A stretch of DNA of 64,000 nt, taken from contig CALRGX010000003.1 of NCBI GenBank assembly GCA_943358385.1, forward strand, positions 2,771-66,770. Direction: 5' to 3'. The DNA comes from Parcubacteria group bacterium (lineage in GTDB: Bacteria > Patescibacteriota > Minisyncoccia > Phycocordibacterales > UBA2100). The position numbers were made by a program, and so were the translations under genes. Below are positions 11,938 through 42,422 of the stretch, in pieces (position 1 is the first letter of the stretch; each line of letters begins with the position of its first letter). Below the pieces are notes generated by a model. It had not been told where the DNA came from and searched no databases. It was given only the letters and a program-made list of their open reading frames with translations.

Positions 11938-11939
11938 CG

Positions 11940-22059: not shown

Positions 22060-22074
22060 TGGAGCATCAGCTAC

Positions 22075-24144: not shown

Positions 24145-24240
24145 GCTGATGTAAAAAGAGCGCTCTATCGTACGAGTGCAAAACATGGCATAGTGCAGAA
24201 AGAGCAGCGCCGTGCTGCCAACTCAACAAGGAGAGACATC

Positions 24241-24552
24241 ATGACTGCATTTCGCGCGTTTTTGATCGCCCTCATCGTCGGTTTGGTTGGTGGGATGACT
24301 ACTTCTGCCATCCGCGCCGACGACCTGCAGAAGCCTGCGATACAGGTGGAAGCAACGGCTCCGGCCCTGCAAAAAATGGCGGTTCTCGCCACGAAACTGC
24401 CGGAAACCATGAGCCTTCCCTCGGGCGTCGTGCCCATCTGCAGCGCGCCGAAGATTTCCTGCGAGTCGTTCTGCTTCCAGTGTCGCGGCGGCCGCGGCTC
24501 CTGCATACGCGACTGCAAGAACCGCGGCAATCCCTGCGTGAGCCCGTGTTGA
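24241..24552 (+). CDS. Small secreted cysteine-rich protein (103 aa)
   Basis: N-terminal signal/TM. Eight Cys in the last 36 residues (C-x6-C-x3-C-x2-C-x6-C-x3-C-x6-C-x3-C). Own terminator. Confidence 0.5.
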   Translation: MTAFRAFLIALIVGLVGGMTTSAIRADDLQKPAIQVEATAPALQKMAVLATKLPETMSLPSGVVPICSAPKISCESFCFQCRGGRGSCIRDCKNRGNPCVSPC

Positions 24553-24574
24553 AGTGACGGCTCTGTTATTCCTT

Positions 24575-24610
24575 GCCGGCCCCGACTCTGTCGGGGCCGG
24601 CTTCTGTTTG
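24575..24610 (+). terminator. Rho-independent terminator
   Basis: gccggccccgac-tctg-tcggggccggc followed by ttctgtttg. Confidence 0.7.
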
Positions 24611-24675
24611 TGTGGATAAATGTGGTTGCGTGGTAGAAAGTGGCATATACTTGGAAACTAGTGGGAGAAAGTGGG
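24611..24675 (+). promoter_or_regulatory. MraZ operator: seven (G)TGG(G) direct repeats phased every 10 bp
   Basis: TGTGG at 24611 and 24621, then TGG/GTGG at 24631, 24641 and 24651, then GTGGG at 24661 and 24671, upstream of mraZ. Confidence 0.6.
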
Positions 24676-24823
24676 AACATGCCCAGGTGCACGATTAAGG
24701 ACGTGCGTCCTGAGTCTGGTGAATCCATTGGATTCAGCAGAGTCCCCGTGTCTTGAAAAAGATGCGGGGAACATGATGCCCCAGCACAACATGCTGGGAA
24801 CCACCTACATCTCACGAAAATAT

Positions 24824-25258
24824 ATGTTCATCGGCGAGTACGAACACGCGTTAGACGACAAAAAACGGGTGATGCTCCCGAAGGCATTCAAGAATGGGTT
24901 AGGTAAGAAAATGGTGATGACGCGGGGTTTTGACAATTGTTTGTTTGTCTACCCACAAGACGCGTGGAAGAAAGTTGCGGAAAAACTTCAGACACTTTCT
25001 TTTGCGCAGGCTGATACGCGTGGGTTCAGTCGCTTTCTGCTTTCAGGTGCGGCAGAGGTAGAGGTTGATGCTGCTGGTCGTGTGCTGATTCCGGAAAACC
25101 ACAAGCAATTCGCTGGTCTCAAAAGGACGGTGGTCTTTGCAGGGGTCTCGGATCGGGTCGAAGTGTGGGATGCAGGGCTGTGGAAGAGCTATAAAGCGCG
25201 CATTGAGAAGCAAGCTGATGCGATGGCCGAAAAGCTCGGTGAGATTGGAGTGCTGTAG
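24824..25258 (+). CDS. mraZ: Transcriptional regulator MraZ
   Basis: Two DxxxR motifs (DDKKRVMLP and DAAGRVLIP). MFIGEYEH N-terminus. Confidence 0.9.
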   Translation: MFIGEYEHALDDKKRVMLPKAFKNGLGKKMVMTRGFDNCLFVYPQDAWKKVAEKLQTLSFAQADTRGFSRFLLSGAAEVEVDAAGRVLIPENHKQFAGLKRTVVFAGVSDRVEVWDAGLWKSYKARIEKQADAMAEKLGEIGVL

Positions 25259-25299
25259 GTTTTTGGTTGCAGAGAGCTGCTAGAGGATTTGCATACGTC

Positions 25300-26238
25300 A
25301 TGCGCACGCGACGAACCACATCCTCTAGCAACTCGGTGCCACGAGAGACTGACCTGCACCCTAGTGTTCTTTTACATGAAGTTGTTGATGCGCTTGAACT
25401 CACCGGCAGTGAGACAATCGTCGACTGCACCCTGGGTGGTGCGGGGCATACCAAGGCAATTGCTGCAAAGCTGAAAGGCGACGGCAAACTGATAGGCCTT
25501 GATGCCGACCCTGCTGCAGTAGATCGTGCGCGGCGTGCACTAAAAAATGCGCAGCCACGAGTCTTGTTGTCGGTGAGCAACTTTCGCCACCTCAGAAGGA
25601 CTCTGGAAACACTCAAGATAGCGGCAGTCGATGGGTTTGTCTTCGACCTTGGGTGGAGCGGATACCAGCTGGTTGCCGAACGAGGATTTTCATTCATGGC
25701 TGATGAACCACTCTTGATGACCTATGGAGCCAAGGATGCCCACGTGTTTACTGCGTACGACGTGGTGAACAACTGGGAAGAGGAAAGCATTGCCGACATT
25801 CTCTATGGTTGGGGTGAAGAGCGATTTGCCCGGCGCATTGCCAAAGCCATTGTGGCGAGGCGTGAACTAAAGCCCATTGCAACCGCCAGAGAGCTCGGTG
25901 AATTGATTAGCCACGCGGTCCCACGCTTCTATGCGCGTGCAAAATTGCATCCGGCCACGAAAACATTCCAGGCAATCCGCATTGCGGTAAATGACGAGCT
26001 AGGCGCCTTGAATGACGGTCTTTCGCAAGCGCTGATATCGCTCGCACCTAAAGGAAAGATTGCGGTGATTACGTTCCACAGCATCGAGGACAGGGCAGTA
26101 AAGCGTCTTTTCCGTGAATGGCAAAACCGTGAACTGGGTATGGCGACGACCAAGAAGCCCATTCGACCATCAACTACTGAATTGAGTGCCAACCCACGCG
26201 CTCGCAGTGCAAAACTTCGTGTCTTTCAAAAAAACTAA
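25300..26238 (+). CDS. rsmH: 16S rRNA m4C1402 methyltransferase RsmH (MraW)
   Basis: HPSVLLHEVVDAL and DCTLGGAGH motifs. Start is uncertain (25267 or 25300). Confidence 0.9.
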   Translation: MRTRRTTSSSNSVPRETDLHPSVLLHEVVDALELTGSETIVDCTLGGAGHTKAIAAKLKGDGKLIGLDADPAAVDRARRALKNAQPRVLLSVSNFRHLRRTLETLKIAAVDGFVFDLGWSGYQLVAERGFSFMADEPLLMTYGAKDAHVFTAYDVVNNWEEESIADILYGWGEERFARRIAKAIVARRELKPIATARELGELISHAVPRFYARAKLHPATKTFQAIRIAVNDELGALNDGLSQALISLAPKGKIAVITFHSIEDRAVKRLFREWQNRELGMATTKKPIRPSTTELSANPRARSAKLRVFQKN

Positions 26239-26239
26239 C

Positions 26240-26584
26240 ATGCAACCCATAATTCCATACATACAGAAAACCAAAGCGCTCCTTGCAGAGGAGTATTTTT
26301 GGGAATCTCACCTGCGGCGGCTCTTGGTCCTCTGTACTGCGGTTGCGTTTGTGGCATACGTGTATTGTGTAGCGGCCTCTATTTTGAATGTGATTGCCCG
26401 CAAAGAGGCTGATGCGAAAACGGCGTCTTTTGCTGCTGCCATTTCGGCACATGAATCGACCTACTTTTCACTTACTCAGTCGATAAAAGAAGAGTCATTG
26501 GGAGAACATGGTTTGTTTGCGATTTCCGACAAACATTTTGTGACGCGAACGCCAACCCTCGGCTTCTCCGCGCATGTCCGGTAA
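26240..26584 (+). CDS. ftsL: FtsL-like cell division protein
   Basis: Small bitopic protein between rsmH and ftsI, by position and topology. Confidence 0.45.
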   Translation: MQPIIPYIQKTKALLAEEYFWESHLRRLLVLCTAVAFVAYVYCVAASILNVIARKEADAKTASFAAAISAHESTYFSLTQSIKEESLGEHGLFAISDKHFVTRTPTLGFSAHVR

Positions 26585-28298
26585 ATCAAAAGGGCTCGCT
26601 CGGTTTCAATGGCGAGTGCGCACAATATTGGGCTGTCTGATTGCAGTCGCACTCCTTCTCATTGCGCGACTCTACTTCGTGCAGGTCGTAAACGGCGCCG
26701 AATACCGTGCAGCGGCTGAAGGACAATACACTTCCACGGGTGCTGCAGCAGAAGCTCGAGGGGATATCTATTTCACGGAAAAAGACGGGCGCGCGTACGC
26801 TGCTGCAGTAATGCGCTCGGGCTACAAAATCGCCATCCAACCAAGTGTGCTCGAGAATCCGGAAAAAGTGTACGGACTTTTAAACGAAGTAACACCTATT
26901 TCAAAAGAGCGATTTTTTGCTGCAGTTGCCAAAACGACTGACCCGTATGAAGAGGTAGCCACCCGCGTGGATGAAGAGGCGGGAAGAATAGTACGCGACA
27001 TGGAGCTCTTGGGCGTGGTGGTGTCTCACGATCGCTGGCGCTTTTACCCTGCACAGGAGCGCGCAGCGCAGACGCTGGGATTTGTTGGGTTCCAAGGACA
27101 CGAGCGCGTAGGGCGCTATGGCTTGGAGCGCTACTGGCAAGACACACTGAAGCGCAATCCTCACGAACTCTATGGAAACTTCTTTGCAGATATTTTTGCC
27201 AACATTGAAGGCCTAGCAGCAACGACGAGTGCCGAAGGCGGGGATGTGATTACCACTATCGAACCTACCGTTGCGCAGCGATTGGAAGATGTGTTACACA
27301 AAATTGACGAAACGTACTCCCCAAAACTTTCAGGCGGTATTGTGATGGATCCAAAAACGGGTGCCATCATCGCTATGAGTGCGACACCGAGCTTTGACCC
27401 AAACAAGTACAACGAAGTAACCTCGCCTGCCGTGTTTAGTAATCCTATGGTTGAAAGTGTTTTTGAATTGGGCTCCATCATGAAGCCGCTCACCGTTGCT
27501 GCCGGCATCGATGCGGGGGTGATCAACGCAGGAACCACTTACAACGATACGGGTTGTATTACGCGTAGCGAATTCCGCGTGTGCAATTTCGATCACATAG
27601 CACGCGGGCGCGTGGCGATGCAGGAAGTTTTGAGTCAATCATTGAATACGGGTGCCACGTATGTTGCCGAGAAGCTTGGTTTTGATCGATTTGCCCAGTA
27701 TGTGCGAGCTTACGGCCTGGGTGAAGAAACAGGCATTGATGTGCCCAATGAAGTGCGCGGAAAGCTCGCCGGTTTGGACAGCGGCTCGGCAGTCGACTTG
27801 GCATCAGCATCATTTGGGCAGGGAATTGCTTTGACCCCGATTGCCATGACTCGCGCCCTTGCCTCGCTTGCAAACGGCGGCATTTTACCTGAACCGCACG
27901 TGGTGGATCGCATTGTGTACCCTTCAGGACTTTCAAAGAAAACCTGGCACATGGGTGAGACGCGGGTGATTTCCGCGGCAGCAGCAGAAGAAACAACACG
28001 CATGCTGGTGGAAGTGGTAGACACGGCGCTTTTGAAAGGAAAGGTAAAGCAAGCAGGGTATTCCATTGCCGCGAAGACGGGCACCGCACAAATCGCACAG
28101 CAAGGCGGCGGCTATTCAGCAGATAAATACCTGCACTCGTTCTTCGGCTATTTCCCTGCACATGACCCCAAATTCGTGGTCTTTCTCTTTACCGTAGAGC
28201 CGAAAAACGTGGAATATGCATCGCAGACCTTGACCGAGCCGTTTATGGACCTCGCTAAATTCCTCATTAGCTACTACGATATCCCTCCCGACCGCTAG
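26574..28298 (+). CDS. ftsI: Peptidoglycan D,D-transpeptidase FtsI (PBP3-like)
   Basis: N-terminal TM. SIMKP (SxxK) and KTGTAQ motifs. In the dcw cluster. Confidence 0.9.
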   Translation: MSGKSKGLARFQWRVRTILGCLIAVALLLIARLYFVQVVNGAEYRAAAEGQYTSTGAAAEARGDIYFTEKDGRAYAAAVMRSGYKIAIQPSVLENPEKVYGLLNEVTPISKERFFAAVAKTTDPYEEVATRVDEEAGRIVRDMELLGVVVSHDRWRFYPAQERAAQTLGFVGFQGHERVGRYGLERYWQDTLKRNPHELYGNFFADIFANIEGLAATTSAEGGDVITTIEPTVAQRLEDVLHKIDETYSPKLSGGIVMDPKTGAIIAMSATPSFDPNKYNEVTSPAVFSNPMVESVFELGSIMKPLTVAAGIDAGVINAGTTYNDTGCITRSEFRVCNFDHIARGRVAMQEVLSQSLNTGATYVAEKLGFDRFAQYVRAYGLGEETGIDVPNEVRGKLAGLDSGSAVDLASASFGQGIALTPIAMTRALASLANGGILPEPHVVDRIVYPSGLSKKTWHMGETRVISAAAAEETTRMLVEVVDTALLKGKVKQAGYSIAAKTGTAQIAQQGGGYSADKYLHSFFGYFPAHDPKFVVFLFTVEPKNVEYASQTLTEPFMDLAKFLISYYDIPPDR

Positions 28299-28356
28299 AA
28301 TCGACTAAAAGGATGTCTGCGACAGAAGGATGGTAAAAAGGTAGAATAAAGAAAAT

Positions 28357-29652
28357 ATGACATTCATACGCTCGATCGTAACGATGATTCTGACCTGGGA
28401 AGCTCGACTGATACTAAAAAAATATACGCCTTTTATTGTGGCGGTGACGGGTAGTGTGGGAAAGACAACGACCAAAGATGCGATTTACACGGTCCTCTCC
28501 AAGGACCGTGACACGCGCAAAAGCGATAAAAGTTTAAATAGTGAGCTCGGTATCCCGCTTACCATCATTGGTGCGGAAAGTGGCTGGTGGAACCCTATTT
28601 CGTGGCTCACCATCATGTGGAAAGGGCTGCTGTTGATTATTCTCCCCACGCGCTATCCAGAGGTGCTGGTTTTGGAAGTAGGGGCAGATCATCCTGGCGA
28701 TGTACGCCGTGCCGCGGTATGGCTCAAGCCGCACATTGCGGTGATCACGGGGATCCCCGAAATTCCTGCACACGTAGAATTTTTTGATTCACCTGATGCG
28801 GTGGTGAAGGAGAAAAAAGAATTAGCGCTGCATGTGCGTTCGGGCGGCTCGGTTATTTTGAATGGCGATGATGAACGTACTCGAGCCATGCATAGTGAGT
28901 TTCGCGCAACCGCGGTGCGCTATGGCCTCACCGCCGGAAACGAATTTACTGCATCACACGAAAGCGTGGTGTATCAGCAAGATGCACCACGAGGGATGCG
29001 TTTTCGTGTGGATCACAGTGGCTCGTCGGTCCCTATTACCATCATGGGTGCCCTAGGGCGCACACATATCCTGCCGTCTTTGGCAGCGTGTGCCGTTGCT
29101 GATGCAATGGGTATCGATCTGGTCGCTGCAGGCGGCGCACTTTTGTCGCATGAGCCAGGGCCAGGCCGTATGCGCGTGATCGAAGGCCTAGGGGGCAGCA
29201 CTATTATCGACGATACCTACAACGCCTCGCCTGCGGCCGTTGCTGCGGCCCTACAGACCCTACACGAGCTGGAAACAGGAGGGCGAAAGATTGCGCTTTT
29301 GGGCGACATGCTTGAATTGGGCAAATACAGTAACGCCGCACACGATGCGGTTGGCGCACAGGCGAGCGGCATTGTTTCTGAATTGGTGACGGTAGGCACT
29401 GAGGCAGCACGTATCGCAGAAAGTGCGCGTAATGCAGGACTCAACCCTGATCGTATTGTGGAATACAAACGAGGTGAATCACTCGCTGCTGGCGAGGCAT
29501 GTGCCAAGCAAATTCGCGAAGGCGATGTCATTTTAGTGAAAGGCTCGCAAGGTATTCGCATGGAGCGTGCGGTAAAGGCATTGATGGCCGAACCGCATCG
29601 GGCAAAAGAATTGCTGGTGCGCCAGAGCGATGAGTGGCTCGCGCTACCGTAG
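28357..29652 (+). CDS. murF: UDP-MurNAc-tripeptide--D-Ala-D-Ala ligase MurF
   Basis: VAVTGSVGKTTTKD P-loop and Mur ligase middle and C-terminal domains. Confidence 0.9.
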   Translation: MTFIRSIVTMILTWEARLILKKYTPFIVAVTGSVGKTTTKDAIYTVLSKDRDTRKSDKSLNSELGIPLTIIGAESGWWNPISWLTIMWKGLLLIILPTRYPEVLVLEVGADHPGDVRRAAVWLKPHIAVITGIPEIPAHVEFFDSPDAVVKEKKELALHVRSGGSVILNGDDERTRAMHSEFRATAVRYGLTAGNEFTASHESVVYQQDAPRGMRFRVDHSGSSVPITIMGALGRTHILPSLAACAVADAMGIDLVAAGGALLSHEPGPGRMRVIEGLGGSTIIDDTYNASPAAVAAALQTLHELETGGRKIALLGDMLELGKYSNAAHDAVGAQASGIVSELVTVGTEAARIAESARNAGLNPDRIVEYKRGESLAAGEACAKQIREGDVILVKGSQGIRMERAVKALMAEPHRAKELLVRQSDEWLALP

Positions 29653-29746
29653 GTCATACGTCTTGACTCACTACGCCTTGTCTTATGGGGGTAGAATATT
29701 TTTTATATCGTAACAGTCGTGCGCGTACAAATATAAGGAACACCAT

Positions 29747-30022
29747 ATGAGCAACCTACACAACACGGGCCCGTCACTTTTCGCGAGCGAAGCAGAGGCA
29801 CTTCTGGCACCTGGGAAAATCGTTCGGCATTATAAAGGCGGCATCTACCGCATTATCGACGAACACGTGCGTCACAGTGAGACGCTGGAAGAAGGCGTGC
29901 TCTACGAGCATCTGTGGCCCAACAAGCATGGGTTTTGGTTTCGACCTGTAGCCATGTTCTGGGGGAATGTAGAGCCAGAGAAGGGTGGTGGGCCGCGATT
30001 TACCGTTGTAGATAGGGAATAG
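29747..30022 (+). CDS. DUF1653-like small protein
   Basis: YKGGIYRIIDEHVRHSETLEEGVLYEHLWPN pattern matching the DUF1653 family. Confidence 0.55.
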   Translation: MSNLHNTGPSLFASEAEALLAPGKIVRHYKGGIYRIIDEHVRHSETLEEGVLYEHLWPNKHGFWFRPVAMFWGNVEPEKGGGPRFTVVDRE

Positions 30023-30062
30023 GGACAAGGGTTTAGGGATTAGCGTATAGAAAGGATAAGCA
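30003..30062 (+). repeat. Purine-rich intergenic repeat (family member A)
   Basis: agggacaagggtttagggattagcgtatagaaaggataagcaggaaga. Confidence 0.55.
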
Positions 30063-30079
30063 GGAAGACAAAAAAAGAA

Positions 30080-30104
30080 GAGGCCGGCGCATAGCGCCGG
30101 CCTC
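30080..30104 (-). terminator. Rho-independent terminator for the minus-strand two-gene unit
   Basis: gaggccggcgc-ata-gcgccggcctc, with tttttttct on the minus strand after the stem. Confidence 0.7.
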
Positions 30105-30125
30105 GATGCCTCTCTGGTGCTCACA

Positions 30126-30236
30126 CTAGCCATGGATAATCCACGGGAGTGCGATGATGGCCGAAAGTGCGAGCGCAAGCGCGATACCGAGTGCAATACC
30201 CCAGTATCCGAGCTTGTGCGTGCCTTCGTAGATCAT
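30126..30236 (-). CDS. Small hydrophobic peptide (36 aa: MIYEGTHKLGYWGIALGIALALALSAIIALPWIIHG)
   Basis: AAGGAGAG RBS 6 nt before the ATG. One TM helix. Terminator directly downstream. Too short for the ORF track. Confidence 0.4.
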   Translation of the reverse strand: MIYEGTHKLGYWGIALGIALALALSAIIALPWIIHG

Positions 30237-30253
30237 ATGTCTCTCCTTCGTTG

Positions 30254-30634
30254 CTACTTCTTTCGCTTCTTGGTTCTTTTGCCTTTGTTGCTGCCCTTGC
30301 GCTCACTTTTGGGTGGGGGCGGTGTAGGCAGATTTTCCGTGACTTGTCCCAACTCAACACTCAGTGAATCAAGTGCGTCGACTGCAGCTTCTACCCGGGC
30401 CATTGCTTCGTCTTGGAATACTTCCCATGTAGTGTTGAGTTGTACACGCAGTGCAGCAATCTGACTCGGGTCAGCTTTCACACGTTCGAGTTGCGTGAGG
30501 AACTGCTCGAGTGCGTGGTGCAATTGGGCACCGTCGTTGTTCAGAACGTGAGACGCGAGCTTCAATTCCGTGAGTAAGCGAGCAATACTTCCTGCAAGCT
30601 CGGCAAATCGCCGCTTGGTGATTTCGTCGGGCAT
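30254..30634 (-). CDS. Hypothetical coiled-coil protein with a Lys-rich C-terminal tail
   Basis: ORF with Met start MPDEITKRRF. Ends in KGSNKGKRTKKRKK. Confidence 0.4.
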   Translation of the reverse strand: MPDEITKRRFAELAGSIARLLTELKLASHVLNNDGAQLHHALEQFLTQLERVKADPSQIAALRVQLNTTWEVFQDEAMARVEAAVDALDSLSVELGQVTENLPTPPPPKSERKGSNKGKRTKKRKK

Positions 30635-30834
30635 AAGAGCCTCCCTATGCTTCAGCTGCCATGTTTCTATCACAGTATATCCATCCTCCAAAGGTACCCA
30701 AGTGGTAGGGGAACACTTTTGCATCGCGGCATAAAAAATCGTATGATATCGGGGCTTTGGCAGGGCGTGTGTTCTACTATGCTTTGCCTCAGCATCTGTC
30801 CTGGGTTTAGTGTCTGGTTTGTATTTGGGGCAGC

Positions 30835-30878
30835 GGCGCTATACCCTAAAACCTAAACCCTACTCCCTTGGCTTTCAT
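30835..30878 (-). repeat. Purine-rich intergenic repeat, partial (family member D, minus orientation)
   Basis: Reverse complement reads ccaagggagtagggtttaggttttagggtatagcg. Confidence 0.5.
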
Positions 30879-30950
30879 GGCCCTATCGTCTAGCGGCTAG
30901 GACACGGCCTTCTCAAGGCTGTAACCGGGGTTCGATTCCCCGTAGGGTCA
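30879..30950 (+). tRNA. tRNA-Glu (anticodon CTC)
   Basis: Cloverleaf with acceptor GGCCCTA/TAGGGTC, D-arm GTCT-AGCGGCTA-GGAC, anticodon loop TTCTCAA and T-arm CGGGG-TTCGATT-CCCCG. Resembles E. coli tRNA-Glu. Confidence 0.85.
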
Positions 30951-32476
30951 CATTCAGAAACTTGGTCGGAAGTAAGCGCGAAATCTGGGCGCGCCGAAGG
31001 CGCGCTGTATGGCGAGGGAATGAAATCCGTCTTGCGGGCGCGGGCGAATTCGGAGGGCGGGCAAAATGAGATCGAAATAGTTTTGTCTTTTAGCGCGGGG
31101 TTCGTTCCGAAGGAACGCAGAAAATCTCGCATTTCGTGGAGATTTTCACTGGTTGCCAGAAACCCCGCGCGTTTTGAATCCAAAATCCACTTCCGCAGGG
31201 GTTCGACCCAATTCTTTCTCTCGGCTCGGGCAGATGAAGATTTTGCTTGAAGCGAGCTCCTTTGACGCATGAGCGCGTCCTTTTTCGTTAGATATATGTC
31301 GCGCTCAATATCGTGGTTTAAGTACAAATCCACGAGTGCGTCGAGCTTCGCTTCAAGCGTTTTCAAATCTTCCTTCATCTGCCCGAGCCGATTTCCCGAA
31401 GCGTGAATTTCGTCATGCTCAAAAACCTCTACTTTTTTGAGCATATAATTTGCCCACGCTTCGGGAAGCGACACTGTTTGAAGCTGTTCCTTTACTTGGA
31501 GAGCGAGCGCATCTTCCTGCAAATATCCTTGACCACATTTTCCTTTCTTTTTCGTACAACGATAATAGCGATACCGACCGCCCATTTTTCCAGTACACCA
31601 TTGAGCAGTTATCATCGAGCCACATTCCCCACAACGAAAAAGTCCGGTGAAAGGAAAATTGTGAGATATTTTGCTATGCCTCGGATGCGCTCGCACGAGA
31701 AGTTGTTTCTGCACAGCTTCAAACAGTGTCGGAGAAAGAATTGGCGCAAAGCTTCCGGGAAAATATTCCTCACGATGCTTGGTAAATCCCAAGTATGCAC
31801 GATTCGTCAAGATCCTTTTCACGGAAGCTTTGCCAAGGGGCGTTCCGGACTTTTGAGCAACACCGTGGTCAGCCAAAAATTGCGACAACGAAATGAGGGT
31901 ATGTGTTCCTTTTACATACTCGCCAAACGCGCGCACAATAATTTTAGATTTCACCGGATTAGGTTCGATATTTCGTGTGGTGGGGTTGTTCACATACCCG
32001 AATGGAGCGCGGGTTAGCCATTCTCCGCGTCGCAATTTTTGGCGCATACCTCGCTCAACATTTTGCTTCAAATTGTCGGAATAATATTTGCTCTGTCCGA
32101 ACGCCACTTGAAGCATAAATAGCCCCTGCGGAGTGGGTTCAAACCAAAATGTCGGAAAACGCAAAGAGATGATTTTTGAAGTGTCTACGGCGTAAATGAT
32201 GCGTCCTCCGTCAATACTATTTCTCGCTAGTCGGTCAGGATGCCATGCGAGGATGCCAACATTGCCTAACTTATCAATTTTGAGCATCATTTCGCCGAAC
32301 ACTTCTCGTCCCGGACTCTTTGCGCTTTTCGACTCTTGAAATTCCTCAAGAATTTCAAGATTTTCTCTGCTCGCAAATTCACGAAGTTCCACAAGTTGAG
32401 CTGGAATACTCATCACTTGCTTATCGTCATCTTCGGTGCTCTTGCGAGCATAGAGAAAATATTTTGGTTTGTTCAT
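30890..32476 (-). CDS. Large serine recombinase (resolvase catalytic domain, recombinase domain, zinc-ribbon, coiled-coil)
   Basis: YARKSTEDDDKQVMSIPAQ with catalytic Ser, and a DRLAR motif. CGECGS...YYRCTKKKGKCGQGY zinc ribbon. The last ~57 codons are encoded by IR-A plus the antisense of tRNA-Glu. Confidence 0.85.
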   Translation of the reverse strand: MNKPKYFLYARKSTEDDDKQVMSIPAQLVELREFASRENLEILEEFQESKSAKSPGREVFGEMMLKIDKLGNVGILAWHPDRLARNSIDGGRIIYAVDTSKIISLRFPTFWFEPTPQGLFMLQVAFGQSKYYSDNLKQNVERGMRQKLRRGEWLTRAPFGYVNNPTTRNIEPNPVKSKIIVRAFGEYVKGTHTLISLSQFLADHGVAQKSGTPLGKASVKRILTNRAYLGFTKHREEYFPGSFAPILSPTLFEAVQKQLLVRAHPRHSKISHNFPFTGLFRCGECGSMITAQWCTGKMGGRYRYYRCTKKKGKCGQGYLQEDALALQVKEQLQTVSLPEAWANYMLKKVEVFEHDEIHASGNRLGQMKEDLKTLEAKLDALVDLYLNHDIERDIYLTKKDALMRQRSSLQAKSSSARAERKNWVEPLRKWILDSKRAGFLATSENLHEMRDFLRSFGTNPALKDKTISISFCPPSEFARARKTDFIPSPYSAPSARPDFALTSDQVSECDPTGNRTPVTALRRPCPSR

Positions 32477-32646
32477 AAATAGTTTTTGGATTCAAAAAAA
32501 GAAACTATTAAGATCTCATTTCTTGCTTTCCGCCCGCCCTCCGAATTCGCCCGCGCCCGCAAGACGGATTTCATTCCCTCGCCATACAGCGCGCCTTCGG
32601 CGCGCCCAGATTTCGCGCTTACTTCCGACCAAGTTTCTGAATGTGA
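30948..32646 (-). mobile_element. Large serine recombinase gene bounded by perfect 115-bp inverted repeats (IR-A), abutting the tRNA-Glu 3' end
   Basis: 30948-31062 is the exact reverse complement of 32532-32646. The left IR starts in the last 3 nt of tRNA-Glu. Confidence 0.8.
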
Positions 32647-32866
32647 TCTAATCATATCCTTTGCGCGAACCTTTTTCGAGAGCTAATCGCACGCTCCGCG
32701 TGCGTGGTGGCTTTAGACCAATGCGTACGCTCCGATTGCGTGGTGACTCTCACAATCCGACCAGCGCCTCGCGGACTCGGCGCTCCGCCCTCGCCCCGTT
32801 CCGCCTTTCCATACTTATTTTTTCGCGGGGGGGGATTTTTTTAAAATTGAATGGGCGGAAACGGGG
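32644..32866 (+). repeat. IR-B left copy (223 bp)
   Basis: Reverse complement of 38872-39092. Internal ~22-bp subrepeats (acgctccg..tgcgtggtg x2). G8 and T7 homopolymer tracts (the right copy has C6 and A7). Confidence 0.85.
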
Positions 32867-32872
32867 CGAGGG

Positions 32873-33298
32873 CTACGAACGTAACTTCTTATAAAGAACA
32901 AATCCTATAAACATAGCCGCACCTCCTATCACGAGATGTGGCGTGTTAAGAACCAATCTCGTAAACATATCTGCAACTGGCTCTGTATCAAAATGAAAAA
33001 GATTGAGATTGAGGTATGCTTTACCAGCAAAAACTCCCACGACACCGTCAAGGAAATAAGCTGTCCCAAATGCTCTAAAATAGAACAAGGCGGCGCCACG
33101 AGAATACCACGCTGCAAGTGCAGCCCAGATTCCGGAGAGGATATGCAGATTGTTTGCTATGGGTTCAAGTTTGAAAAAGCCGAATATCAAGCCGTTTTCC
33201 GCAATAATGAAAGGCATGTAATTCATTGCAGCCAAAAAAGTAAACATAGCTGTAAATAACCACGCCAAATTTTGAACTGTAAAATATTTATAGACCAT
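32873..33298 (-). CDS. Small polytopic membrane protein (141 aa), DUF4383-like guess
   Basis: Four predicted TM helices. First gene inside the IR-B cassette. Confidence 0.4.
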   Translation of the reverse strand: MVYKYFTVQNLAWLFTAMFTFLAAMNYMPFIIAENGLIFGFFKLEPIANNLHILSGIWAALAAWYSRGAALFYFRAFGTAYFLDGVVGVFAGKAYLNLNLFHFDTEPVADMFTRLVLNTPHLVIGGAAMFIGFVLYKKLRS

Positions 33299-33359
33299 GA
33301 GGGTGTCGCTAGTTATTAGTAAAATGTATTATAATAATAGCACAGCTTAAATACGTCCT

Positions 33360-34964
33360 GTGGCAAAACTACGATCACACTTGAAACCGAAAATCTCAAG
33401 CATCCTGCTTGTCTTTTTTGCGCTTCTCGCCTTGATTCTTGGAAAGAAAACATACGATCTCGCCGCCGCGCCGAAAAATGAGAGAGATTGCAATTTTGTC
33501 TATCCGTATACGACCGATAAAACAACGATTGAAATACGATATTCCGGTTTGGATGAATCAGGACTCGAAGTGCTTCAAAAGGGCGGGACGATCAATGATG
33601 CGAGCTGTCTCAATAAAACGAATGTATATGCGATTGTGCAGGTCAGGAGCGAGGACGATATCGAGGCCGCGCTCCAATTCGCCCGTGAGCATGATCTCAA
33701 AGTCACTCCTGCAGGTGAGCATCACAGTATGGGCGGACAGAGTTTCTCCCGCGGTGGTCTCGTGCTCGACATGCGAGAGTTTGACCAGATAAAGGTAGAC
33801 AAAGCAAACAAGATACTCAATGTACAAAGCGGCGCGTCATGGAAAGAAGTACAGGCAGTGCTTGATCCGTTGGGACTTGCGGTAAAGGCGATGCAATCCA
33901 TCAACATCTTCACAGTGGGAGGAACGCTAAGCGTCAATGCTCACGGCATTGTGCATGATCCGGGACAGATCGCCCCGACGGTGCGTCAGATTCGAGTCAT
34001 GTTGAGTTCCGGAGAAATTAAAACTGCAAGCCCCACCATAAATCCTGAATTGTTTAGCGCTGTGCTCGGCGGCTACGGCCTCTCCGGCATTATTCTCGAT
34101 GTTGATCTTGATATCGTTGACAACGAGTCATATGCGTGGAAGACGGAATACATGGATTTCAAAGATTTTCCCGAATATTATCGGAACGAGATTATCGGGA
34201 ACGACGACGTCGGACTTTTTTATGCGCGACTCTCGATTGCGCCGGGCTCTTATCTCACAGAGACGGCAATTCATCGGTATGAAAAACTTGATTTTGAGAT
34301 GGAGCCGGAGCCGCTACGGGGTGCATCAAAAGTTTGGATAAAGCGTCTTATCTTCAATATTTCAAAAACCGGAGGACTTGGCCGATGGATGCGCTGGACT
34401 ACCGAAAAATATCTTGAGCCGGGCGTGCATACCTGTATCTCCCGCAACCAAGCGATTGCGACTGGCCATGAGGAGGAGATTTGTGTGGCAAGTCGAAACA
34501 ACAAAATGAATCAATCAATGGAATACCTTGACGTCCGACAGAAAGATACCAACATCCTGCACGAATACTTTATCCCTCTTGAAAACTCGGTAGCGTTTAT
34601 CGAGGGATTGAAAAAAGTAGTAAGGGAGGATGACGTAAATCTTTTGAATGTGACCCTGCGCATCGTCACGAAGGATACGATTACCGCGCTGCCATACGCA
34701 AAAGACGACCGCATCGCATTCGTGCTTTACTTCAATCAAAAATTGAACGAAAAGGACAGCAAGAAATTGGAGAAAGCGACCGTGGACTTGATTGATCTCG
34801 CTGTTGCAAACGGAGGAACATATTATCTCCCGTATCAACTCTATTACTCAAAAGAACAGTTGCGCGCAGCGTATCCCGAAATAGACCGCTTCTTTGGACT
34901 GAAGCACAGATATGACCCGATTGGTTTATTCTCTAACTCCTTTTACGAAAAGTACGGCGACTGA
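33360..34964 (+). CDS. FAD-linked oxidoreductase (FAD_binding_4 / vanillyl-alcohol-oxidase or DprE1-like fold) with N-terminal TM anchor
   Basis: LKVTPAGEHHSMGGQSFSRGGLVLDM FAD-binding (PCMH) motif. 534 aa. N-terminal TM. Confidence 0.7.
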   Translation: MAKLRSHLKPKISSILLVFFALLALILGKKTYDLAAAPKNERDCNFVYPYTTDKTTIEIRYSGLDESGLEVLQKGGTINDASCLNKTNVYAIVQVRSEDDIEAALQFAREHDLKVTPAGEHHSMGGQSFSRGGLVLDMREFDQIKVDKANKILNVQSGASWKEVQAVLDPLGLAVKAMQSINIFTVGGTLSVNAHGIVHDPGQIAPTVRQIRVMLSSGEIKTASPTINPELFSAVLGGYGLSGIILDVDLDIVDNESYAWKTEYMDFKDFPEYYRNEIIGNDDVGLFYARLSIAPGSYLTETAIHRYEKLDFEMEPEPLRGASKVWIKRLIFNISKTGGLGRWMRWTTEKYLEPGVHTCISRNQAIATGHEEEICVASRNNKMNQSMEYLDVRQKDTNILHEYFIPLENSVAFIEGLKKVVREDDVNLLNVTLRIVTKDTITALPYAKDDRIAFVLYFNQKLNEKDSKKLEKATVDLIDLAVANGGTYYLPYQLYYSKEQLRAAYPEIDRFFGLKHRYDPIGLFSNSFYEKYGD

Positions 34965-35891
34965 TTAGCGGTGTTCATACTTATCCCGCATCTTCTTCGC
35001 AAGTGGTGGTTCGTCCGTGACGAGGCCGTATGAATTCTTGCGAAGCGCGAAGTCAACCGACGTTTCGTCGTTGACCGACCAGAGAAACACCGGGTATCCC
35101 TTCGCAAGGAGTTTATCGATCACGGCTTCATCAACTTGATACTGAATACTGACCGCATCGGGCTTTACAAGTTTTCTAATCAGAGTCCGCGTCCACTCCG
35201 TTTGTAAGTACCACGGCAATGTAACTCGGTCTTCTTCCTTCGTTTCCGCAATCCGTTTCGGATCCCACCCTGTATCCATGAATATGAAAACCGTCTTGAT
35301 GCGCGGATCCATTTTTTTGAGGCGATGCAGGACAACCGGATTGAACGAACTTATATACACCCGCTCATACGCATTATGTTTTGCTAGTACCTCGTTCACG
35401 CGCCGCTCGATGCCTGTATCCGACGCGGCGGGCACTTTCAACTCAACCATCAGGTATGCATCGGGTGTTATCTCCTTGACAAAATCCTCGAACGTCTTGA
35501 TGTATACGCCAGAAAATCCGTTCCCATACTTTGTTCCGAGATCATACGTTTGCAGTTCTGTAAGCGTCTTTGCATCAATGCGGCCTTCGCCCGTTGTAAA
35601 CCGCTCAAGGGACACGTCATGGAAAATCACCACTTCTTCATCCTGCGAGAATTGAGCATCAACATCTACACCGTCAAACCCTTGTGCAACGGCAATTCGC
35701 GCTCCCTCCAAGCTGTTGTCAGGCGCATGATTACCAAAACCGCGATGTGCAAACACCAATATTTGTTCGTCAGTTGAAATTAAGCCTTTGTATTTTGGCT
35801 CGTATAAAAACAGGTACGCTGGAAGTGCAACGACCACCAAGACAATAACCGAGGTGTATTTGAATATTTTTCCTTTTGCGAAAGTGGGCAT
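34965..35891 (-). CDS. Glycerophosphodiester phosphodiesterase family protein, membrane-anchored
   Basis: HRGFGNHAPDNSLEG and FDGVDVDAQFSQDEEVVIFHD GDPD catalytic motifs. Confidence 0.75.
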   Translation of the reverse strand: MPTFAKGKIFKYTSVIVLVVVALPAYLFLYEPKYKGLISTDEQILVFAHRGFGNHAPDNSLEGARIAVAQGFDGVDVDAQFSQDEEVVIFHDVSLERFTTGEGRIDAKTLTELQTYDLGTKYGNGFSGVYIKTFEDFVKEITPDAYLMVELKVPAASDTGIERRVNEVLAKHNAYERVYISSFNPVVLHRLKKMDPRIKTVFIFMDTGWDPKRIAETKEEDRVTLPWYLQTEWTRTLIRKLVKPDAVSIQYQVDEAVIDKLLAKGYPVFLWSVNDETSVDFALRKNSYGLVTDEPPLAKKMRDKYEHR

Positions 35892-35940
35892 ATTCTCCTA
35901 TATCAAGATATACTAACAGTATACTTCCTTTCACAAACGA

Positions 35941-36828
35941 ATGACATTCTCTGCTTTCAAAAAACATAAGGTGGTGCGCTTGATTGCGCGAGTGGCTATC
36001 GGTACAGTCGTACTTTTCGCAATTCTTGTGTTATCACTTCTGTTGTTTCGCGAGCCTTCAAACGATAGGGATTGGGCGTTTGATCAGTCAATATTGCCGT
36101 ATGCAATTTTTGACGGCGACATAGTGACGATAAAAAATATCCGCAACTTCTCCTATGCGTCGCGCAACGAATATGCGCCAAACTATTACGACAAGACGTT
36201 TGATTTACGAACGATAGAATCAGTGGATTATATTGTTGAGCCACTTGCCAGCATCGCCGCCGCGCACACGTTTTTGAGTTTCGGCTTTAAGAATGGCGAT
36301 CATGTTGCCATCTCCATTGAAATACGAAAAGAAAAGGGCGAGGAATTTTCCCCGTTCCGAGCACTCGTCAACGAGTACGAGATCATGTATGTCATCGTTG
36401 ATGAGCGCGACACTATACAACTCCGTGCTATACATCGGGACAACCCTGTTTATCTCTATTCTGCCAAAGTATCGCCTGATAAGATAAGACCGCTATTCGT
36501 TGATATACTGGAGCGAGCAAACAAGCTGAAAGAGAAGCCGGAATTTTACAACACTCTTACAAACACCTGCGCAACGAACATTGCAGACCATATCAACAAT
36601 ATCTCGCCTGGACGCATCTCGTTTGATTGGCGAATTTTGCTTCCACTTGATTCCGATCAATTTGCCTACGAACTTGGATTGATTGACAACTCACTGCCGT
36701 TTGAGGAAGTACGCCAGAAACATCTTATAAACGATTTTATAAAAGAGTACGCAGACGACCCCGACTTTTCCGTCAAGATACGCGAAGCGCAACAGCGCTC
36801 GCTCGCTAATACCGACTCATCCCAGTAA
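35941..36828 (+). CDS. DUF4105-like (Lnb N-terminal-domain-like) protein
   Basis: N-terminal TM. YNTLTNTCATN motif resembling the DUF4105 signature. Confidence 0.5.
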   Translation: MTFSAFKKHKVVRLIARVAIGTVVLFAILVLSLLLFREPSNDRDWAFDQSILPYAIFDGDIVTIKNIRNFSYASRNEYAPNYYDKTFDLRTIESVDYIVEPLASIAAAHTFLSFGFKNGDHVAISIEIRKEKGEEFSPFRALVNEYEIMYVIVDERDTIQLRAIHRDNPVYLYSAKVSPDKIRPLFVDILERANKLKEKPEFYNTLTNTCATNIADHINNISPGRISFDWRILLPLDSDQFAYELGLIDNSLPFEEVRQKHLINDFIKEYADDPDFSVKIREAQQRSLANTDSSQ

Positions 36829-38371
36829 ATTCTCCAAAACGATACCAAAGTGTCTTGCCGATGCTTGTGCCGGCGTACGTCTCGTAATCTGTCGAGTAGG
36901 TCTTGCCCTCTGTATTGTTCCAGCTCGCGTTAAAGAACGCCATCGCATCGTTGATTGCCCTAACTCCAGCATCACCGGAGACAAGGACGTTCGTTTCCAG
37001 ATTAAGATTGTCGAGATTGCGCCTCGTGAGGTTTGCCGAGCCTTGAATAATTGAATTCGCACCGTTTTTCTTGAAAATGAGTAATTTACTATGACACTGC
37101 TCGCCGTGCGTATCGCACCAGCGAATCGTAGTATTGCCGTTCGTGTACTCTGCAAGTTCATGCGCGACTTGTCGGTTCGGAATTCCGTTTTTCTCTCTGC
37201 CGAAAGCGTCTTTATTCGGATCAAGTAAAAGGCGTATTTTCACACCACGTTCGTCCGCTTGCTTGAGTGCTCGCACGATGTCACGATCTGAAAGATAGAA
37301 CATCGCCATATCAAATTCATCGTTGCTCCCAAGTTCTGCTAACAGTTCAAGTATCTTCTTCTCGATTGCTCGCTCTGTGAGTAGTTGTACGCGCACATCA
37401 CCATTCCGGTCATTAATCGTGTCGAGAATATGCTTAGATGGTTCTATAAAGTTTGCATCAGAAAAACGAGCTACTACGCGTTCGCTTCGAAGCACATCTT
37501 GCCACAAATTGTCATCAACTCGTATTGCTGTATTACTATGTGCGCTTGAGCCATCGTGAGGGTTGGCGGAGGTTATGAGTACCGAAAAGCCGCTGGTTCT
37601 TTCTCTTGCATCGTCCGTCATGAGCACCTTTCGATGGTTTGCTTTGAAGTTGAACGAATTGAGATACGAGACGATGTTTATGTTTGGTTTTCGAGCATCA
37701 AGCGCGTTTGGTACTATGTCGCCAAGTCCTTGATCCGGTAGCCACCTAAAAAATGTTCTCCACAAAGCACTAAATACAGGATTGCTGTCACGAAGCGGAA
37801 TGAGATTTGTTGTTATGACGGAAATACCCGCGCGCTCCAAATCTTTGAAGTGATCGGGGGTGTATCCTCCGTACATTGAGTTGATAGGGTCGGTAATCAC
37901 TTGGATAACGATGTCCGGTTTTTGTGTTTTCTTTTCAATCAGTAGGTCGGTGAGTTCCTTAGAGAGTTGTCGGTGCGACGTAGTCGCAGTTCCTAAAAAG
38001 TCGCTGAAAAAAAACATGTCGAGCAGGATATATGTCTCGGCATTTTTGATCATACGAAACGCCTCGTCAAATATCTGCTGGTCGGAATGTCGTACACCGC
38101 CTTTGTCGATGTACGTTCGGTCACTAAAAAAATCTATACTCGAATTCGGAACAGTGTACGATTGACTTTCGAGCGTTAAACCGTTTGGGAGCGGTTTGTA
38201 TGCTCCGTATAATCCTACAATGGCGACGAGAGCAACGACTCCAAAAATTATTTTTCTTATCACATAGATATTGTACCGCAGAAGCAGTTCTGATTTTAGG
38301 GAGTCCCGCCCGCGACCCCTTCCGCCCTTCGCGGGCGGGATGTGCGCGCACTGGGTGGGAGGGGCAAGCAC
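36806..38371 (-). CDS. Phospholipase D family protein / cardiolipin-synthase-like (two HKD motifs), membrane-anchored
   Basis: HRKVLMTD...SANPHDGS and HSKLLIF...GSANLTRRNL HxK(x)4D motifs. N-terminal TM. The first ~30 codons overlap a GC hairpin, so the true start may be downstream. Confidence 0.75.
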   Translation of the reverse strand: MLAPPTQCAHIPPAKGGRGRGRDSLKSELLLRYNIYVIRKIIFGVVALVAIVGLYGAYKPLPNGLTLESQSYTVPNSSIDFFSDRTYIDKGGVRHSDQQIFDEAFRMIKNAETYILLDMFFFSDFLGTATTSHRQLSKELTDLLIEKKTQKPDIVIQVITDPINSMYGGYTPDHFKDLERAGISVITTNLIPLRDSNPVFSALWRTFFRWLPDQGLGDIVPNALDARKPNINIVSYLNSFNFKANHRKVLMTDDARERTSGFSVLITSANPHDGSSAHSNTAIRVDDNLWQDVLRSERVVARFSDANFIEPSKHILDTINDRNGDVRVQLLTERAIEKKILELLAELGSNDEFDMAMFYLSDRDIVRALKQADERGVKIRLLLDPNKDAFGREKNGIPNRQVAHELAEYTNGNTTIRWCDTHGEQCHSKLLIFKKNGANSIIQGSANLTRRNLDNLNLETNVLVSGDAGVRAINDAMAFFNASWNNTEGKTYSTDYETYAGTSIGKTLWYRFGEFTGMSRY

Positions 38372-38871
38372 ATACGGCTTCGCGCCTCGGACATTTCCGC
38401 TAGGGCGTCCACGCCCTTGGATGAGCGCCGCCGTAATCTTGCAATACAGAAATTCGAAGCGGAAGCGACACCACGAACGCTATTTTGAAAACGAGAAGGG
38501 GGTTGTGCGAGGGAGGACTCCGAAGGCACAAACAACGAAGGCAAAGACATAGGTAAACTACTAACTAAAATAAAGCACTGAATACTCTAGCAAACCACTG
38601 CGAGGAGGAGACCGAAGCTGGGGGGAGGATTCCTTCCTACCCCCAAACAGCATGGCGCCCGAGCACCCGCTCCGCAGAGCGGGAGTGCGAGGAGAAGCGC
38701 CAAACCTAGACATCTAGGCGCGAGTAGCCCTAGCGGAAATGTTCCGAGGCGGATGCCGAGGATGGACTCCATGGGCTGGACGAACCACTAGCGATAAAAA
38801 ATGACACGAGGCTCAATATTGAATTTGCATTTTCTTCCGACTGCTTCTTCCTTAGAAGAAGCCCGGCCGAG

Positions 38872-39092
38872 CCCCGTTTCCGCCCATTCAATTTTAAAAA
38901 AATCCCCCCGCGAAAAAATAAGTATGGAAAGGCGGAACGGGGCGAGGGCGGAGCGCCGAGTCCGCGAGGCGTTGGTCGGATTGTGAGAGTCACCACGCAA
39001 TCGGAGCGTACGCATTGGTCTAAAGCCACCACGCACGCGGAGCGTGCGATTAGCTCTCGAAAAAGGTTCGCGCAAAGGATATGATTAGATCA
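38872..39092 (-). repeat. IR-B right copy (221 bp)
   Basis: Reverse complement of 32644-32866 except for homopolymer tract lengths. Confidence 0.85.
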
Positions 39093-39308
39093 CCAGTGTG
39101 GAGACAAGATTCGATTCGGAGTGGTTTTCTTTGGCGGCTGCCAAAGAAAACCACTGATTCTGGGCGATGCCGCGCGCTGCGCGCGAGTCTTGAGCCTCCT
39201 TTCGGGTGGATACCAGAAGCGTCACGCGGAGAGCATTGTAAAAATCGCTGCACGGATCAAAAGCTCTTGCGTTATAACGCGCACTTTTGGGCGCTTACTA
39301 CGGAAAGT

Positions 39309-39608: not shown

Positions 39609-39667
39609 ATGAGCGCAGCCCCCAACCTTGTTGGGGGCTGCTTTGGTTATGGTATTATGGACGGTAT

Positions 39668-40875: not shown

Positions 40876-40933
40876 ATGCGACAGTATATCCCACCGAATC
40901 TGACTCAATCGCTCGCTCTGGTATAGTGGGTGC

Positions 40934-41800: not shown

Positions 41801-41839
41801 CGTATACTCTCGGCAGCTCATCTTTGAGGAGGATAGACG

Positions 41840-42331: not shown

Positions 42332-42422
42332 GAACGACTACAAGAGCCGCCTCGAAGAGGCGGCTCTTTCATGCTTTTTGTGACGCGGCCACCTCTCGTA
42401 TACCGCGATTTCTTGTGGTAAA

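Follow-up and report, generated by a model that had tools for sequence, protein, structure and literature searches.

Why is a recombinase gene enclosed by a perfect inverted repeat, and why does its reading frame run into a tRNA gene? These questions are raised by a 64,000-nt stretch of DNA from a Parcubacteria group bacterium (GenBank assembly GCA_943358385.1, contig CALRGX010000003.1, positions 2,771 to 66,770 of the forward strand), here called the window, in which a large serine recombinase (LSR) is encoded directly against the 3' end of a tRNA-Glu(CTC) gene, in the antisense direction. We consider it probable, at roughly 78%, that the locus is an integrative island driven by the LSR and placed at the 3' end of a tRNA gene (tDNA), and that the inverted repeat is the signature of a duplicated and inverted arm of the attachment site attP.

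The inverted repeat, IR-A, consists of a left arm (A', 30948..31062, plus strand) and a right arm (A, 32532..32646, plus strand), 115 nt each and 100% complementary, exactly as the original prediction had described it. It continues inwards for 28 nt in an imperfect form, 82% complementary. The left part of this extension (31064..31091, plus strand) is recombinase coding sequence (..KDKTISISF) and is also present in two related loci, L001 and L002, and the right part (32494..32521, plus strand) lies within the 5' leader of the recombinase gene. Both a 60-mer and a 20-mer derived from the arm are found at the two arm positions only, with 0 matches expected by chance, and no other copy of IR-A exists in the 64-kb window.

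The tRNA-Glu(CTC) gene (30879..30951, plus strand, by ARAGORN; Rfam RF00005, 58 bits over 30879-30950) is undamaged; it ends in 3-4 nt (TCA/TCAC) that also belong to the element. Judged by the ARAGORN and Rfam ends, the left arm does begin within these last bases, as had been claimed. The recombinase open reading frame (ORF) occupies 30890..32476 on the minus strand and encodes 528 residues. Toward its end the left arm supplies about 38 codons (residues ~472-509, minus strand), and the antisense tRNA adds 55 nt, or about 19 codons, before the frame closes at a stop codon at 30890-30892. The earlier figure of ~57 C-terminal residues encoded by repeat and tRNA is therefore right. The frame was also said to cross the whole antisense tRNA; it does read through the left arm into the tRNA, but it stops after crossing 62 of the 73 bases.

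The extent of the mobile unit is given by an empty site. An exact-protein look-up of the neighbouring DUF1653 gene led to a contig of the same species (L084, GCA_943354405.1) without the element. Positions 1-11205 of this contig correspond to window positions 19747-30951 at 99.98% identity, positions 11202-14576 correspond to 39090-42464 at 99.97%, and the two alignments overlap by exactly 4 nt, TCAC. The empty site reads ..GGTTCGATTCCCCGTAGGG-TCAC-CAGTGTGGAGACAAG.., that is tRNA-Glu...GGGTCAC/CAGTGTGG, and the letters of the tRNA are the same in the occupied and the empty genome. Because of this empty site the insert can be delimited as 8,142 bp bounded by TCAC, at 30952..39093 or equivalently 30948-39089. 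The left copy of the direct repeat, which is the crossover core, lies at 30948..30951 and the right copy at 39090..39093, both on the plus strand. The original prediction, made without this direct repeat, had proposed either a new element with terminal inverted repeats (TIRs) that targets tRNA-Glu or a self-inverting recombinase module. The check for an empty tRNA-Glu site in related strains is positive, and a mobile LSR element targeting the 3' end of this tRNA stands, but the 115-bp repeats are not its termini: the unit that moved is 8,142 bp long, with the left arm alone at an end and the right arm internal. Ends marked by a direct repeat of 4 bp are what an LSR should leave after recombining attP with attB.

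The element contains the recombinase and 6 kb of low-GC (guanine plus cytosine) cargo with five genes. The GC fraction, about 0.53 before the drop, is 0.46-0.48 over 31001-38000 and about 0.52 from 38001, including the last ~1.1 kb of the element, and the flanks are mostly at 0.50-0.56. Further contigs of the same species end within a few to ~26 bases of the boundary between tRNA and element, which fits, without showing, mixed occupied and empty populations. An exact-pattern scan of the Joint Genome Institute (JGI) metagenomes for the empty attB gave 0 matches. A long hairpin, GTGGTTTTCTTTGGC..GCCAAAGAAAACCAC, lies 3' of the empty attB (window 39130-39165, L084 11236-11270); it is probably the original terminator of the tRNA, moved 8 kb away by the insertion.

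The protein is an LSR by its catalytic residues, its recombinase and zinc-ribbon/coiled-coil regions, its fold and its integration at a short identity, which are all the criteria that can be tested. It matches the Pfam domains PF00239 Resolvase (E 3e-19, residues 7-153), PF07508 Recombinase (2.7e-11) and PF13408 Zn_ribbon_recom (1e-11). In an alignment of 41 sequences the motif Y9-A10-R11-K12-S13 is invariant, where Ser13 is the catalytic serine nucleophile, and so are the zinc-ribbon cysteines C282, C285, C307 and C314. The AlphaFold2 model built from this alignment is of moderate quality, with a mean pLDDT (predicted local distance difference test) of 66.7, and has predicted long helices over residues 339-419. 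The folded part covers about residues 1-470 (31067-32476), and residues 472-528 are predicted to be disordered, with pLDDT below 50 from residue 472 onward. Foldseek against the PDB finds SprA (9y66, 9dxh; E 1e-15), Bxb1 (6e-13), and phiC31 and LI integrase (4kis; both ~2e-9), while similarity to the solved LSRs at the sequence level is weak (E 6e-8 to SprA). No relatives were found in a scan of viral contigs with the recombinase, and there is therefore no evidence for a phage origin.

The order along the element is tRNA, A', recombinase (minus strand), A joined to T, cargo, T' and host, where T and T' are the arms of a second inverted repeat. Three junctions can be read, each from the A or host side toward its partner. 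J1 joins A to the tRNA, ..GTTTCTGAAT-GTGA-CCCTACGGGGAATCGAACC, which ends in antisense tRNA, J2 joins A to a tail, ..GTTTCTGAAT-GTGA-TCTAATCATATCCTTTGCGCGAACC, and J3 joins the host to the tail, ..CTCCACACTG-GTGA-TCTAATCATATCCTTTGCGCGAACC. The cores of J1 and J3 are direct. The core of J2, GTGA at 32643..32646 on the plus strand, is inverted relative to both TCAC copies. At nine further loci the identity common to the three junctions is found at one fixed position, and it reads GTGA at tRNA-Glu and GCGG at tRNA-Ser. We infer that J1 corresponds to attL, where the tRNA would supply the B-type half-site, that J3 corresponds to attR, and that attB would consist of the tRNA end and host sequence. 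J2 would then join the two element-derived halves, and the right arm A with the tail that follows it would be an intact attP-like site, inverted with respect to both ends. Measured from the core, a CGAAC motif is 13 nt away in the tRNA half (T-arm) and 19 nt away in the tail half. In LSR half-sites the motif for the zinc-ribbon domain is said to lie farther out in P-type than in B-type, as Rutherford et al. reportedly described in 2013. The spacing observed here recalls this difference, by analogy, as a lead rather than a test. Dyad symmetry of the A·T site was looked for by eye and is not evident.

The tail behind J2 is a coding sequence. On the plus strand, reading outward from the right arm A, an ORF (32486..32686) encodes ..SECDLIISFARTFFES followed by a stop, and the native C-terminus of the recombinase is ..DLIISFARTFFES. 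The native tail codons, D-LIISFARTFFES-stop (32645..32686, plus strand), follow in frame from arm A and would form the P'-type half-site. In all 40 unique J2 junctions (40/40) the frame from arm A is open for at least 13 codons past the core, with the consensus (E)VSxC(D/G)x(I/L)(I/L)xFARTFF(E/Q)... Column entropies at the three codon positions are 0.66 / 0.42 / 0.83, and some of the changes are synonymous (GCG/GCA/GCT, ACC/ACT, TTC/TTT); because of this pattern we conclude that the tail is under coding selection. The J2 region resembles an inverted duplicate of the last ~190 nt of the gene, with a degenerate ..KDKTISISF.. copy at its inner end. A single-nucleotide difference is found ~118 nt from the core, where the J3 copy has ..CCGACCAACGCC.. 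against ..CCGACCAGCGCC.. A promoter in the tail directed toward the recombinase was considered and rejected, as the weak sigma-70-like matches (5, against 3.0 expected by shuffling) are not above chance.

The second repeat pair, IR-T, was also missing from the original prediction. It lies directly outside the right A arm, brackets the low-GC cargo and consists of 198 nt at 98% identity and 48 nt at 94%. The left arm (32643..32867, plus strand) contains the tail, a pair of 34-nt direct repeats that form hairpins and a long hairpin whose loop is A/T-rich, and the right arm (T', 38871..39093, minus strand) forms the putative attR with the host flank. The direct repeats of the two arms (32679-32748 and 38988-39057) are small hairpins, CGCACGC..GCGTGCG, followed by TGGTG, and the long hairpin at 32786-32875 has a 20-bp stem and a loop of ~47 nt. 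An inverted A·T copy accounts for both nested pairs, the A arms around the recombinase and the T arms around the cargo. In ten loci (L012, L019, L020, L031, L032, L053, L055, L066, L079 and L081), of which L053 is a closed chromosome, 1.8-5.2 kb of variable cargo lies between T pairs of 164-265 nt, most of them 100% identical. T-like motifs follow the tail in many other loci, and the region beside the upstream arm is conserved in most of them.

A single course of events would explain this layout. By recombining attP with attB, the LSR would have placed the 8.1-kb island at the final bases of tRNA-Glu(CTC). The attP would lie inside the 3' end of the recombinase gene, made of arm A, the core GTGA and the tail with the T arm, so that integration would fuse the ORF to the antisense tRNA (attL, tRNA·A') and would carry the 13 codons that natively end the gene (LIISFARTFFES) to the island's far end (attR, T'·host). 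A second intact attP (A·T), in inverted orientation, would stand just upstream of the recombinase. Excision through the two direct TCAC cores would yield a circle with two inverted attP sites, in which arm A and the T' copy restore the native ORF with its ..SECDLIISFARTFFES ending. The spare attP may allow two configurations, which would arise if the island integrates through one site or the other, or if the segment between the A arms inverts, and in the prevalent one the recombinase would be convergent with the tRNA and its native tail lost.

The architecture is not private to this genome. In a homologue scan that took one genome for each species, a relative of the recombinase turned up in at least 578 genomes. 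Its homologues number in the thousands, the named source organisms are always Patescibacteria, and so are the sources of all the loci that we fetched (80/80). The antisense-tDNA ending ..C-D-P-T-G-N-R-T-P.. (the T-arm read in antisense) is carried by 85 of the 120 best homologues and the native ending ..(I/L)(I/L)xFARTFF.. by ten of the same 120. Among the 79 loci analysed, the recombinase abuts the antisense 3' end of a tRNA in 66 and of a transfer-messenger RNA (tmRNA) in four. The 66 loci cover 16 ARAGORN anticodon classes, with Glu-CTC and Glu-TTC the commonest and one tRNA-like call with a stop anticodon. The last of these (L063 1832-1905) is called 'tRNA-Stop' with anticodon TTA and stands at the insertion site; either a UAA-suppressor-like tRNA or an erroneous call is conceivable. 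The tmRNA (ssrA) loci form a sub-clade (L045 1752-2141, L047 7524-7915, L048 5560-5959, L052 1822-2223); their tmRNA genes score 108-145 bits with Rfam and were missed by ARAGORN.

The same architecture is seen in more than 60 independent assemblies, one of them a closed chromosome (CP060229.1, L053), and also at loci where the two arms match imperfectly. The complete inverted repeat is present in 62 of the 79 loci. In two of the loci, L003 and L004, the recombinase is 95-97% identical to that of the window and the DNA ~93-94%, with unrelated flanks, which by sequence comparison indicates recent horizontal transfer. In L004 the first 7 tail nt (TCTAATC, ~5824-5831) lie beside the upstream arm and are followed by unrelated sequence, with the recombinase 95% identical; this locus is probably a deletion derivative that has lost its T arm. 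In another pair, L020 7526-7739 and L079 7520-7751, the element sits at the Glu or the Ser gene of the same divergent tRNA-Glu(TTC)/tRNA-Ser(CGA) pair, and the core differs with the target, GTGA at Glu and GCGG at Ser. As reciprocal empty sites these two loci are approximate only, with boundaries within ~100-300 bp.

The A arms evolve in concert within each genome. Over the outer 110 nt the two arms are identical at a median of 99.1%, and 28 of the 62 complete pairs are perfect, though no part of the protein varies more from species to species than the peptide that they encode. When L006 and L009 are compared, the outer ends of the arms are orthologous by position and the centres are homogenised per genome, in patchy tracts that point to gene conversion rather than exchange of whole arms. 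The inner edge of the arm is sharp, at GCCC(G/A)CCC. More than 50 of 58 arms (L002-L082) contain a GC-rich hairpin 31-45 nt from the outer arm end, with compensatory changes between lineages; in the window it is GCGCGCC-TTC-GGCGCGC, at 31000-31020 and 32574-32594. The hairpin is frequently followed by a T-run in the outward direction; the window T-run is weak, and the terminator scan made no call there. Rfam matched the tRNA alone in the A and T regions. The hairpin falls within the recombinase ORF, about 12 codons ahead of the crossover. It may block transcripts that leave the module, for instance into the antisense tRNA, and if it terminates transcription the recombinase mRNA would be without a stop codon.

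The orientation of the recombinase bears on the use of the spare attP. The window orientation, with the recombinase at the tRNA's or tmRNA's 3' end, is found in 70 of 79 species representatives. A flipped arrangement is found in L097, where the order is tRNA-Ile (plus), A', recombinase (plus), A·T and cargo. Because the arms of L097 are clearly different, its flip is not an assembler ambiguity; an integration that used the other attP copy would fit it. Two more loci, L016 and L074, are flipped as well, on contigs that end inside the element. In the flipped arrangement the tRNA is upstream and co-directional, and the recombinase reads into the conserved FARTFF tail. L001, a public Taylorbacteria scaffold, was considered as a further flipped example and rejected: an 'NN' scaffold join (3004-3005) lies immediately next to 23 nt that repeat the end of the arm, and owing to this join the position of the recombinase relative to the tRNA is unreliable in the record. 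L095 has three A copies and no tRNA, in the order A·Ta, cargo, Ta'·A', recombinase, A·Tb; complete units arrayed in tandem are the best reading of it. A gapped-pattern scan for the flipped state beside tRNA-Glu gave 0 matches and, having no matching control scan, is uninformative.

Several points weigh against an island with a duplicated, inverted attP. Our data are assemblies only, where the junction of a circle would look like J2, and an excised circle, a read-level junction or experimental recombination has not been observed. The half-sites are assigned by the logic of the sequences alone, and no conserved host-side half-site is visible by eye in the junctions. The far junction of L012 (tRNA-Pro) lacks the common core, with a host/tail junction at ~1595 of ..TTTCG/TCATATT against ..TGTGA/TCATATT; this may be a later mutation or rearrangement. 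A T pair is found in only 10 of the ~26 loci having ~6 kb of upstream flank, where the other loci may have longer cargo or no pair. Among the cargo genes no recombination directionality factor (RDF) is recognisable, although these factors are too diverse to be excluded by sequence. Every same-species contig that bridges a repeat is in the window orientation (L083, L088, L089, L090, L101). Finally, the canonical rules for LSRs leave the spare attP without a reaction partner once the island is integrated.

The alternative that fares best is a self-inverting switch, in which the 1.47-kb recombinase body would be turned over between two states in one lineage, either by the LSR itself or by RecA through the 115-nt arms. 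It is compatible with the island model, and we regard it as possible, though clearly the lesser prospect. The common state would be convergent, with the antisense-tRNA tail ('off' or altered) and exposed to read-through from the tRNA, and the flipped state would be co-directional with the FARTFF tail ('on'). Inversion would give the spare A·T copy its function, and the spare 3' end is placed exactly where it could be re-joined by inversion. The existence of L097, L016 and L074, the native tail in ten of the 120 top homologues, the near-identity of arms that are so variable between species, and the conserved hairpin with compensatory changes in each arm all agree with this idea. However, no single element has been seen in both orientations, and the same-species contigs agree with each other (L083, L088 and L101 over the bridged repeats, L089 and L090 over the left arm). 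The bias of 70 : 2 among species representatives argues against frequent neutral flipping. The diverged arms of L097 fit alternative integration through the other attP better than a recent arm-to-arm inversion, and the flipped contigs with perfect arms, L016 and L074, end inside the element and could be path choices of the assembler. To our knowledge canonical LSRs do not recombine attL with attP. No inverted cargo was seen between close relatives (L031/L032 and others).

A less likely explanation is that the spare copy is a relic, an ancient inverted attP duplication with no present function that is kept as the 5' leader and promoter region of the recombinase and homogenised by gene conversion. 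The patchy, position-specific conversion in L006 and L009 would follow from this, as would the sharp inner boundary, where one copy is coding sequence, the other is leader, and selection on the two differs, and the arms have drifted to 75-85% identity in some lineages. The sigma-70-like match inside the tail, directed at the recombinase, would suit a promoter role, but it is weak and not above chance. The relic idea also has to face a spare copy that keeps an open, conserved tail frame in every unique junction (40/40) across very divergent hosts, and T pairs that are mostly 100% identical.

More ambitious than the island itself, and in our view rather improbable, is the proposal that the recombinase gene has its control of directionality or expression built in: that tail exchange, together with orientation to tRNA read-through, replaces the separate RDF or repressor of known serine integrases, that the spare attP provides two integrated isomers, and that the enzyme is a programmable integrase for the universal T-arm and acceptor end of tRNA genes.

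Very little speaks for a transposon of 1.7 kb (30948-32646) with the arms as its termini, to which the cargo and T arms would be a separate insertion. The perfect arms surround the recombinase gene alone, many metagenomic contigs are 1.7-2.2 kb long and match the unit size, and the arrays of L055 and L095 look modular. But the empty site lacks recombinase and cargo together, and no locus has the order tRNA, A', recombinase, A and host without tail sequence; even L004 keeps its 7 tail nt. The cores at the arm ends are inverted (TCAC against GTGA), so that the unit is not the product of a circle with one site, and the outer junctions alone are direct. The window holds no third IR-A copy, insertion is site-specific at tDNA ends, and short contigs are expected from assembly breaks at the repeats, as in L099 and L100, cargo-only contigs that end at T. 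A cassette model, where every module would be a circle of its own that has a palindromic site and integrates separately, was rejected on the same geometry, since the J1 and J2 cores are inverted and only J1 and J3 are direct.

An assembly artefact, with inverted repeat and read-through produced by a mis-joined or arbitrarily oriented contig, has almost no chance of being correct: with a perfect 115-nt repeat, a de Bruijn graph does not fix which way round the inner segment lies, many contigs break at A or T repeats, and L001 has its 'NN' join beside a repeat copy, but the same layout and orientation are found in loci with imperfect arms and in the closed chromosome CP060229.1, and five independent same-species assemblies agree at 99.9% or more.

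The cargo region (32868..38870, no strand assigned) is absent from L084 and contains five genes: a DUF4383 membrane protein (32873-33298, minus strand), a FAD/ALO-type oxidase (33360-34964, plus), a GDPD phosphodiesterase (34965-35891, minus), a Lnb_N-domain protein (35941-36828, plus) and a PLD-like protein (36806-38371, minus). Between the T pairs of the ten loci named above, the genes include those for an AAA_15 ATPase, for methyltransferases, for a restriction-modification system that has a LexA-methylase fusion, for a beta-helix/PKD surface protein, for GrpB and for a deaminase. L055 (434-696 and 3103-3385) has an extra partial A·T site and a T'/T pair between two cargo blocks, which hints at several cargo modules in an array or at tandem elements that have decayed. 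Away from the element, two adjacent paralogue-like ORFs (732 and 689 residues in L083) share three blocks of 145-215 nt at 94-99% identity (19973-20749 against 22133-22912), and these look like recently converted segments between paralogues.

Among known systems the island resembles most closely the elements of serine integrases such as phiC31, Bxb1, SPbeta SprA and the Listeria A118/LI integrase. The proteins share the resolvase, recombinase and zinc-ribbon domains with the coiled coil, and the same fold; the elements share an end identity of a few bp (here TCAC), a recombinase gene beside attP and short asymmetric sites. The differences are that those elements target protein-coding genes, not the 3' end of a tRNA or tmRNA, and that here the attP lies within the recombinase ORF, with a C-terminus that changes on integration. 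Here an extra inverted attP also gives nested repeat pairs of 115-155 nt and 164-265 nt, and the elements are tiny (~3.5-8 kb), with no phage or conjugation genes and no recognised RDF. TnpX (Tn4451), TndX (Tn5397) and CcrAB (SCCmec) likewise move cargo with an LSR through a circular intermediate without long direct repeats, but their elements have no long inverted repeats, no targeting of tDNA ends and no site in the recombinase ORF. The view in the original prediction that long inverted repeats around an LSR gene are unusual is supported. Serine transposons bounded by TIRs (IS607, TnpX-type) are not matched, as the empty site lacks 8,142 bp and not the 1.7-kb unit.

By position and content the element resembles Islander-type islands, P4-like integrases and tycheposons, which are small islands of variable cargo that lie against the 3' end of tRNA and tmRNA genes and restore the target gene. 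These islands also have the integrase gene beside the tDNA and carry defence, modification and surface genes as cargo. In contrast to the present element they use a tyrosine recombinase and leave a displaced tDNA fragment at the far end, where we find 4 bp of identity only. Among tycheposons an LSR replaces the tyrosine recombinase in 27 of 937 elements (bioRxiv 10.1101/2020.12.28.424599), and integration into tRNA and tmRNA genes has been thought a niche of tyrosine integrases (PMC4383910). Full-text literature searches turned up no description of this family in Patescibacteria or of nested inverted attP duplications.

An attachment site in the element's own gene, with a product that integration alters and excision restores, is a likeness to SSV1 and to the phages with integration-dependent immunity. 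In SSV1 the attP lies within int, and integration splits int into two parts. In the immunity phages, reportedly described by Broussard et al. in 2013, attP is said to lie inside a phage gene. Both use tyrosine integrases, whereas here the last 13 codons are exchanged and the frame runs into an antisense tRNA. The invertases Hin, Mu Gin and P1 Cin are similar in having a serine recombinase gene inside a segment flanked by inverted repeats, as for hin. In the G segment of Mu, inversion exchanges the ends of the S gene, and the alternative C-terminal coding ends on either side are a further likeness. However, these are small serine recombinases with a C-terminal helix-turn-helix, 26-bp sites and a Fis-dependent enhancer, in place of a 528-residue LSR and repeats of 115-155 nt, and here one alternative end is an antisense tRNA and the flipped state is seen in other species only. 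The proposed circle, with two unique segments between inverted repeats that carry sites, also recalls the yeast 2-micron plasmid (FLP/FRT, 599-bp inverted repeats). That plasmid is an autonomous replicon that amplifies its copy number by inversion with the tyrosine recombinase FLP, while the present element has no replication genes and its circle is deduced.

The family shows that serine integrases can be dedicated integrators of tRNA and tmRNA genes. The attP within the ORF, the exchange of the C-terminus and the conserved spare attP pose a question about how LSRs control directionality and expression. LSRs are tools for genome engineering, and a clade that reads the T-arm and acceptor end of tRNAs with an apparently non-specific second half-site would be of practical interest. 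For annotation, the A and T repeats systematically break short-read assemblies of the candidate phyla radiation (CPR) and create recombinase ORFs that run through tRNA genes. For the Patescibacteria (CPR) themselves, whose genomes are tiny and whose mobile elements are poorly known, the islands are possibly a major vehicle of horizontal gene transfer, with relatives in at least 578 species-level genomes and a cargo of restriction-modification systems, AAA_15 ATPases, surface proteins and lipid enzymes.

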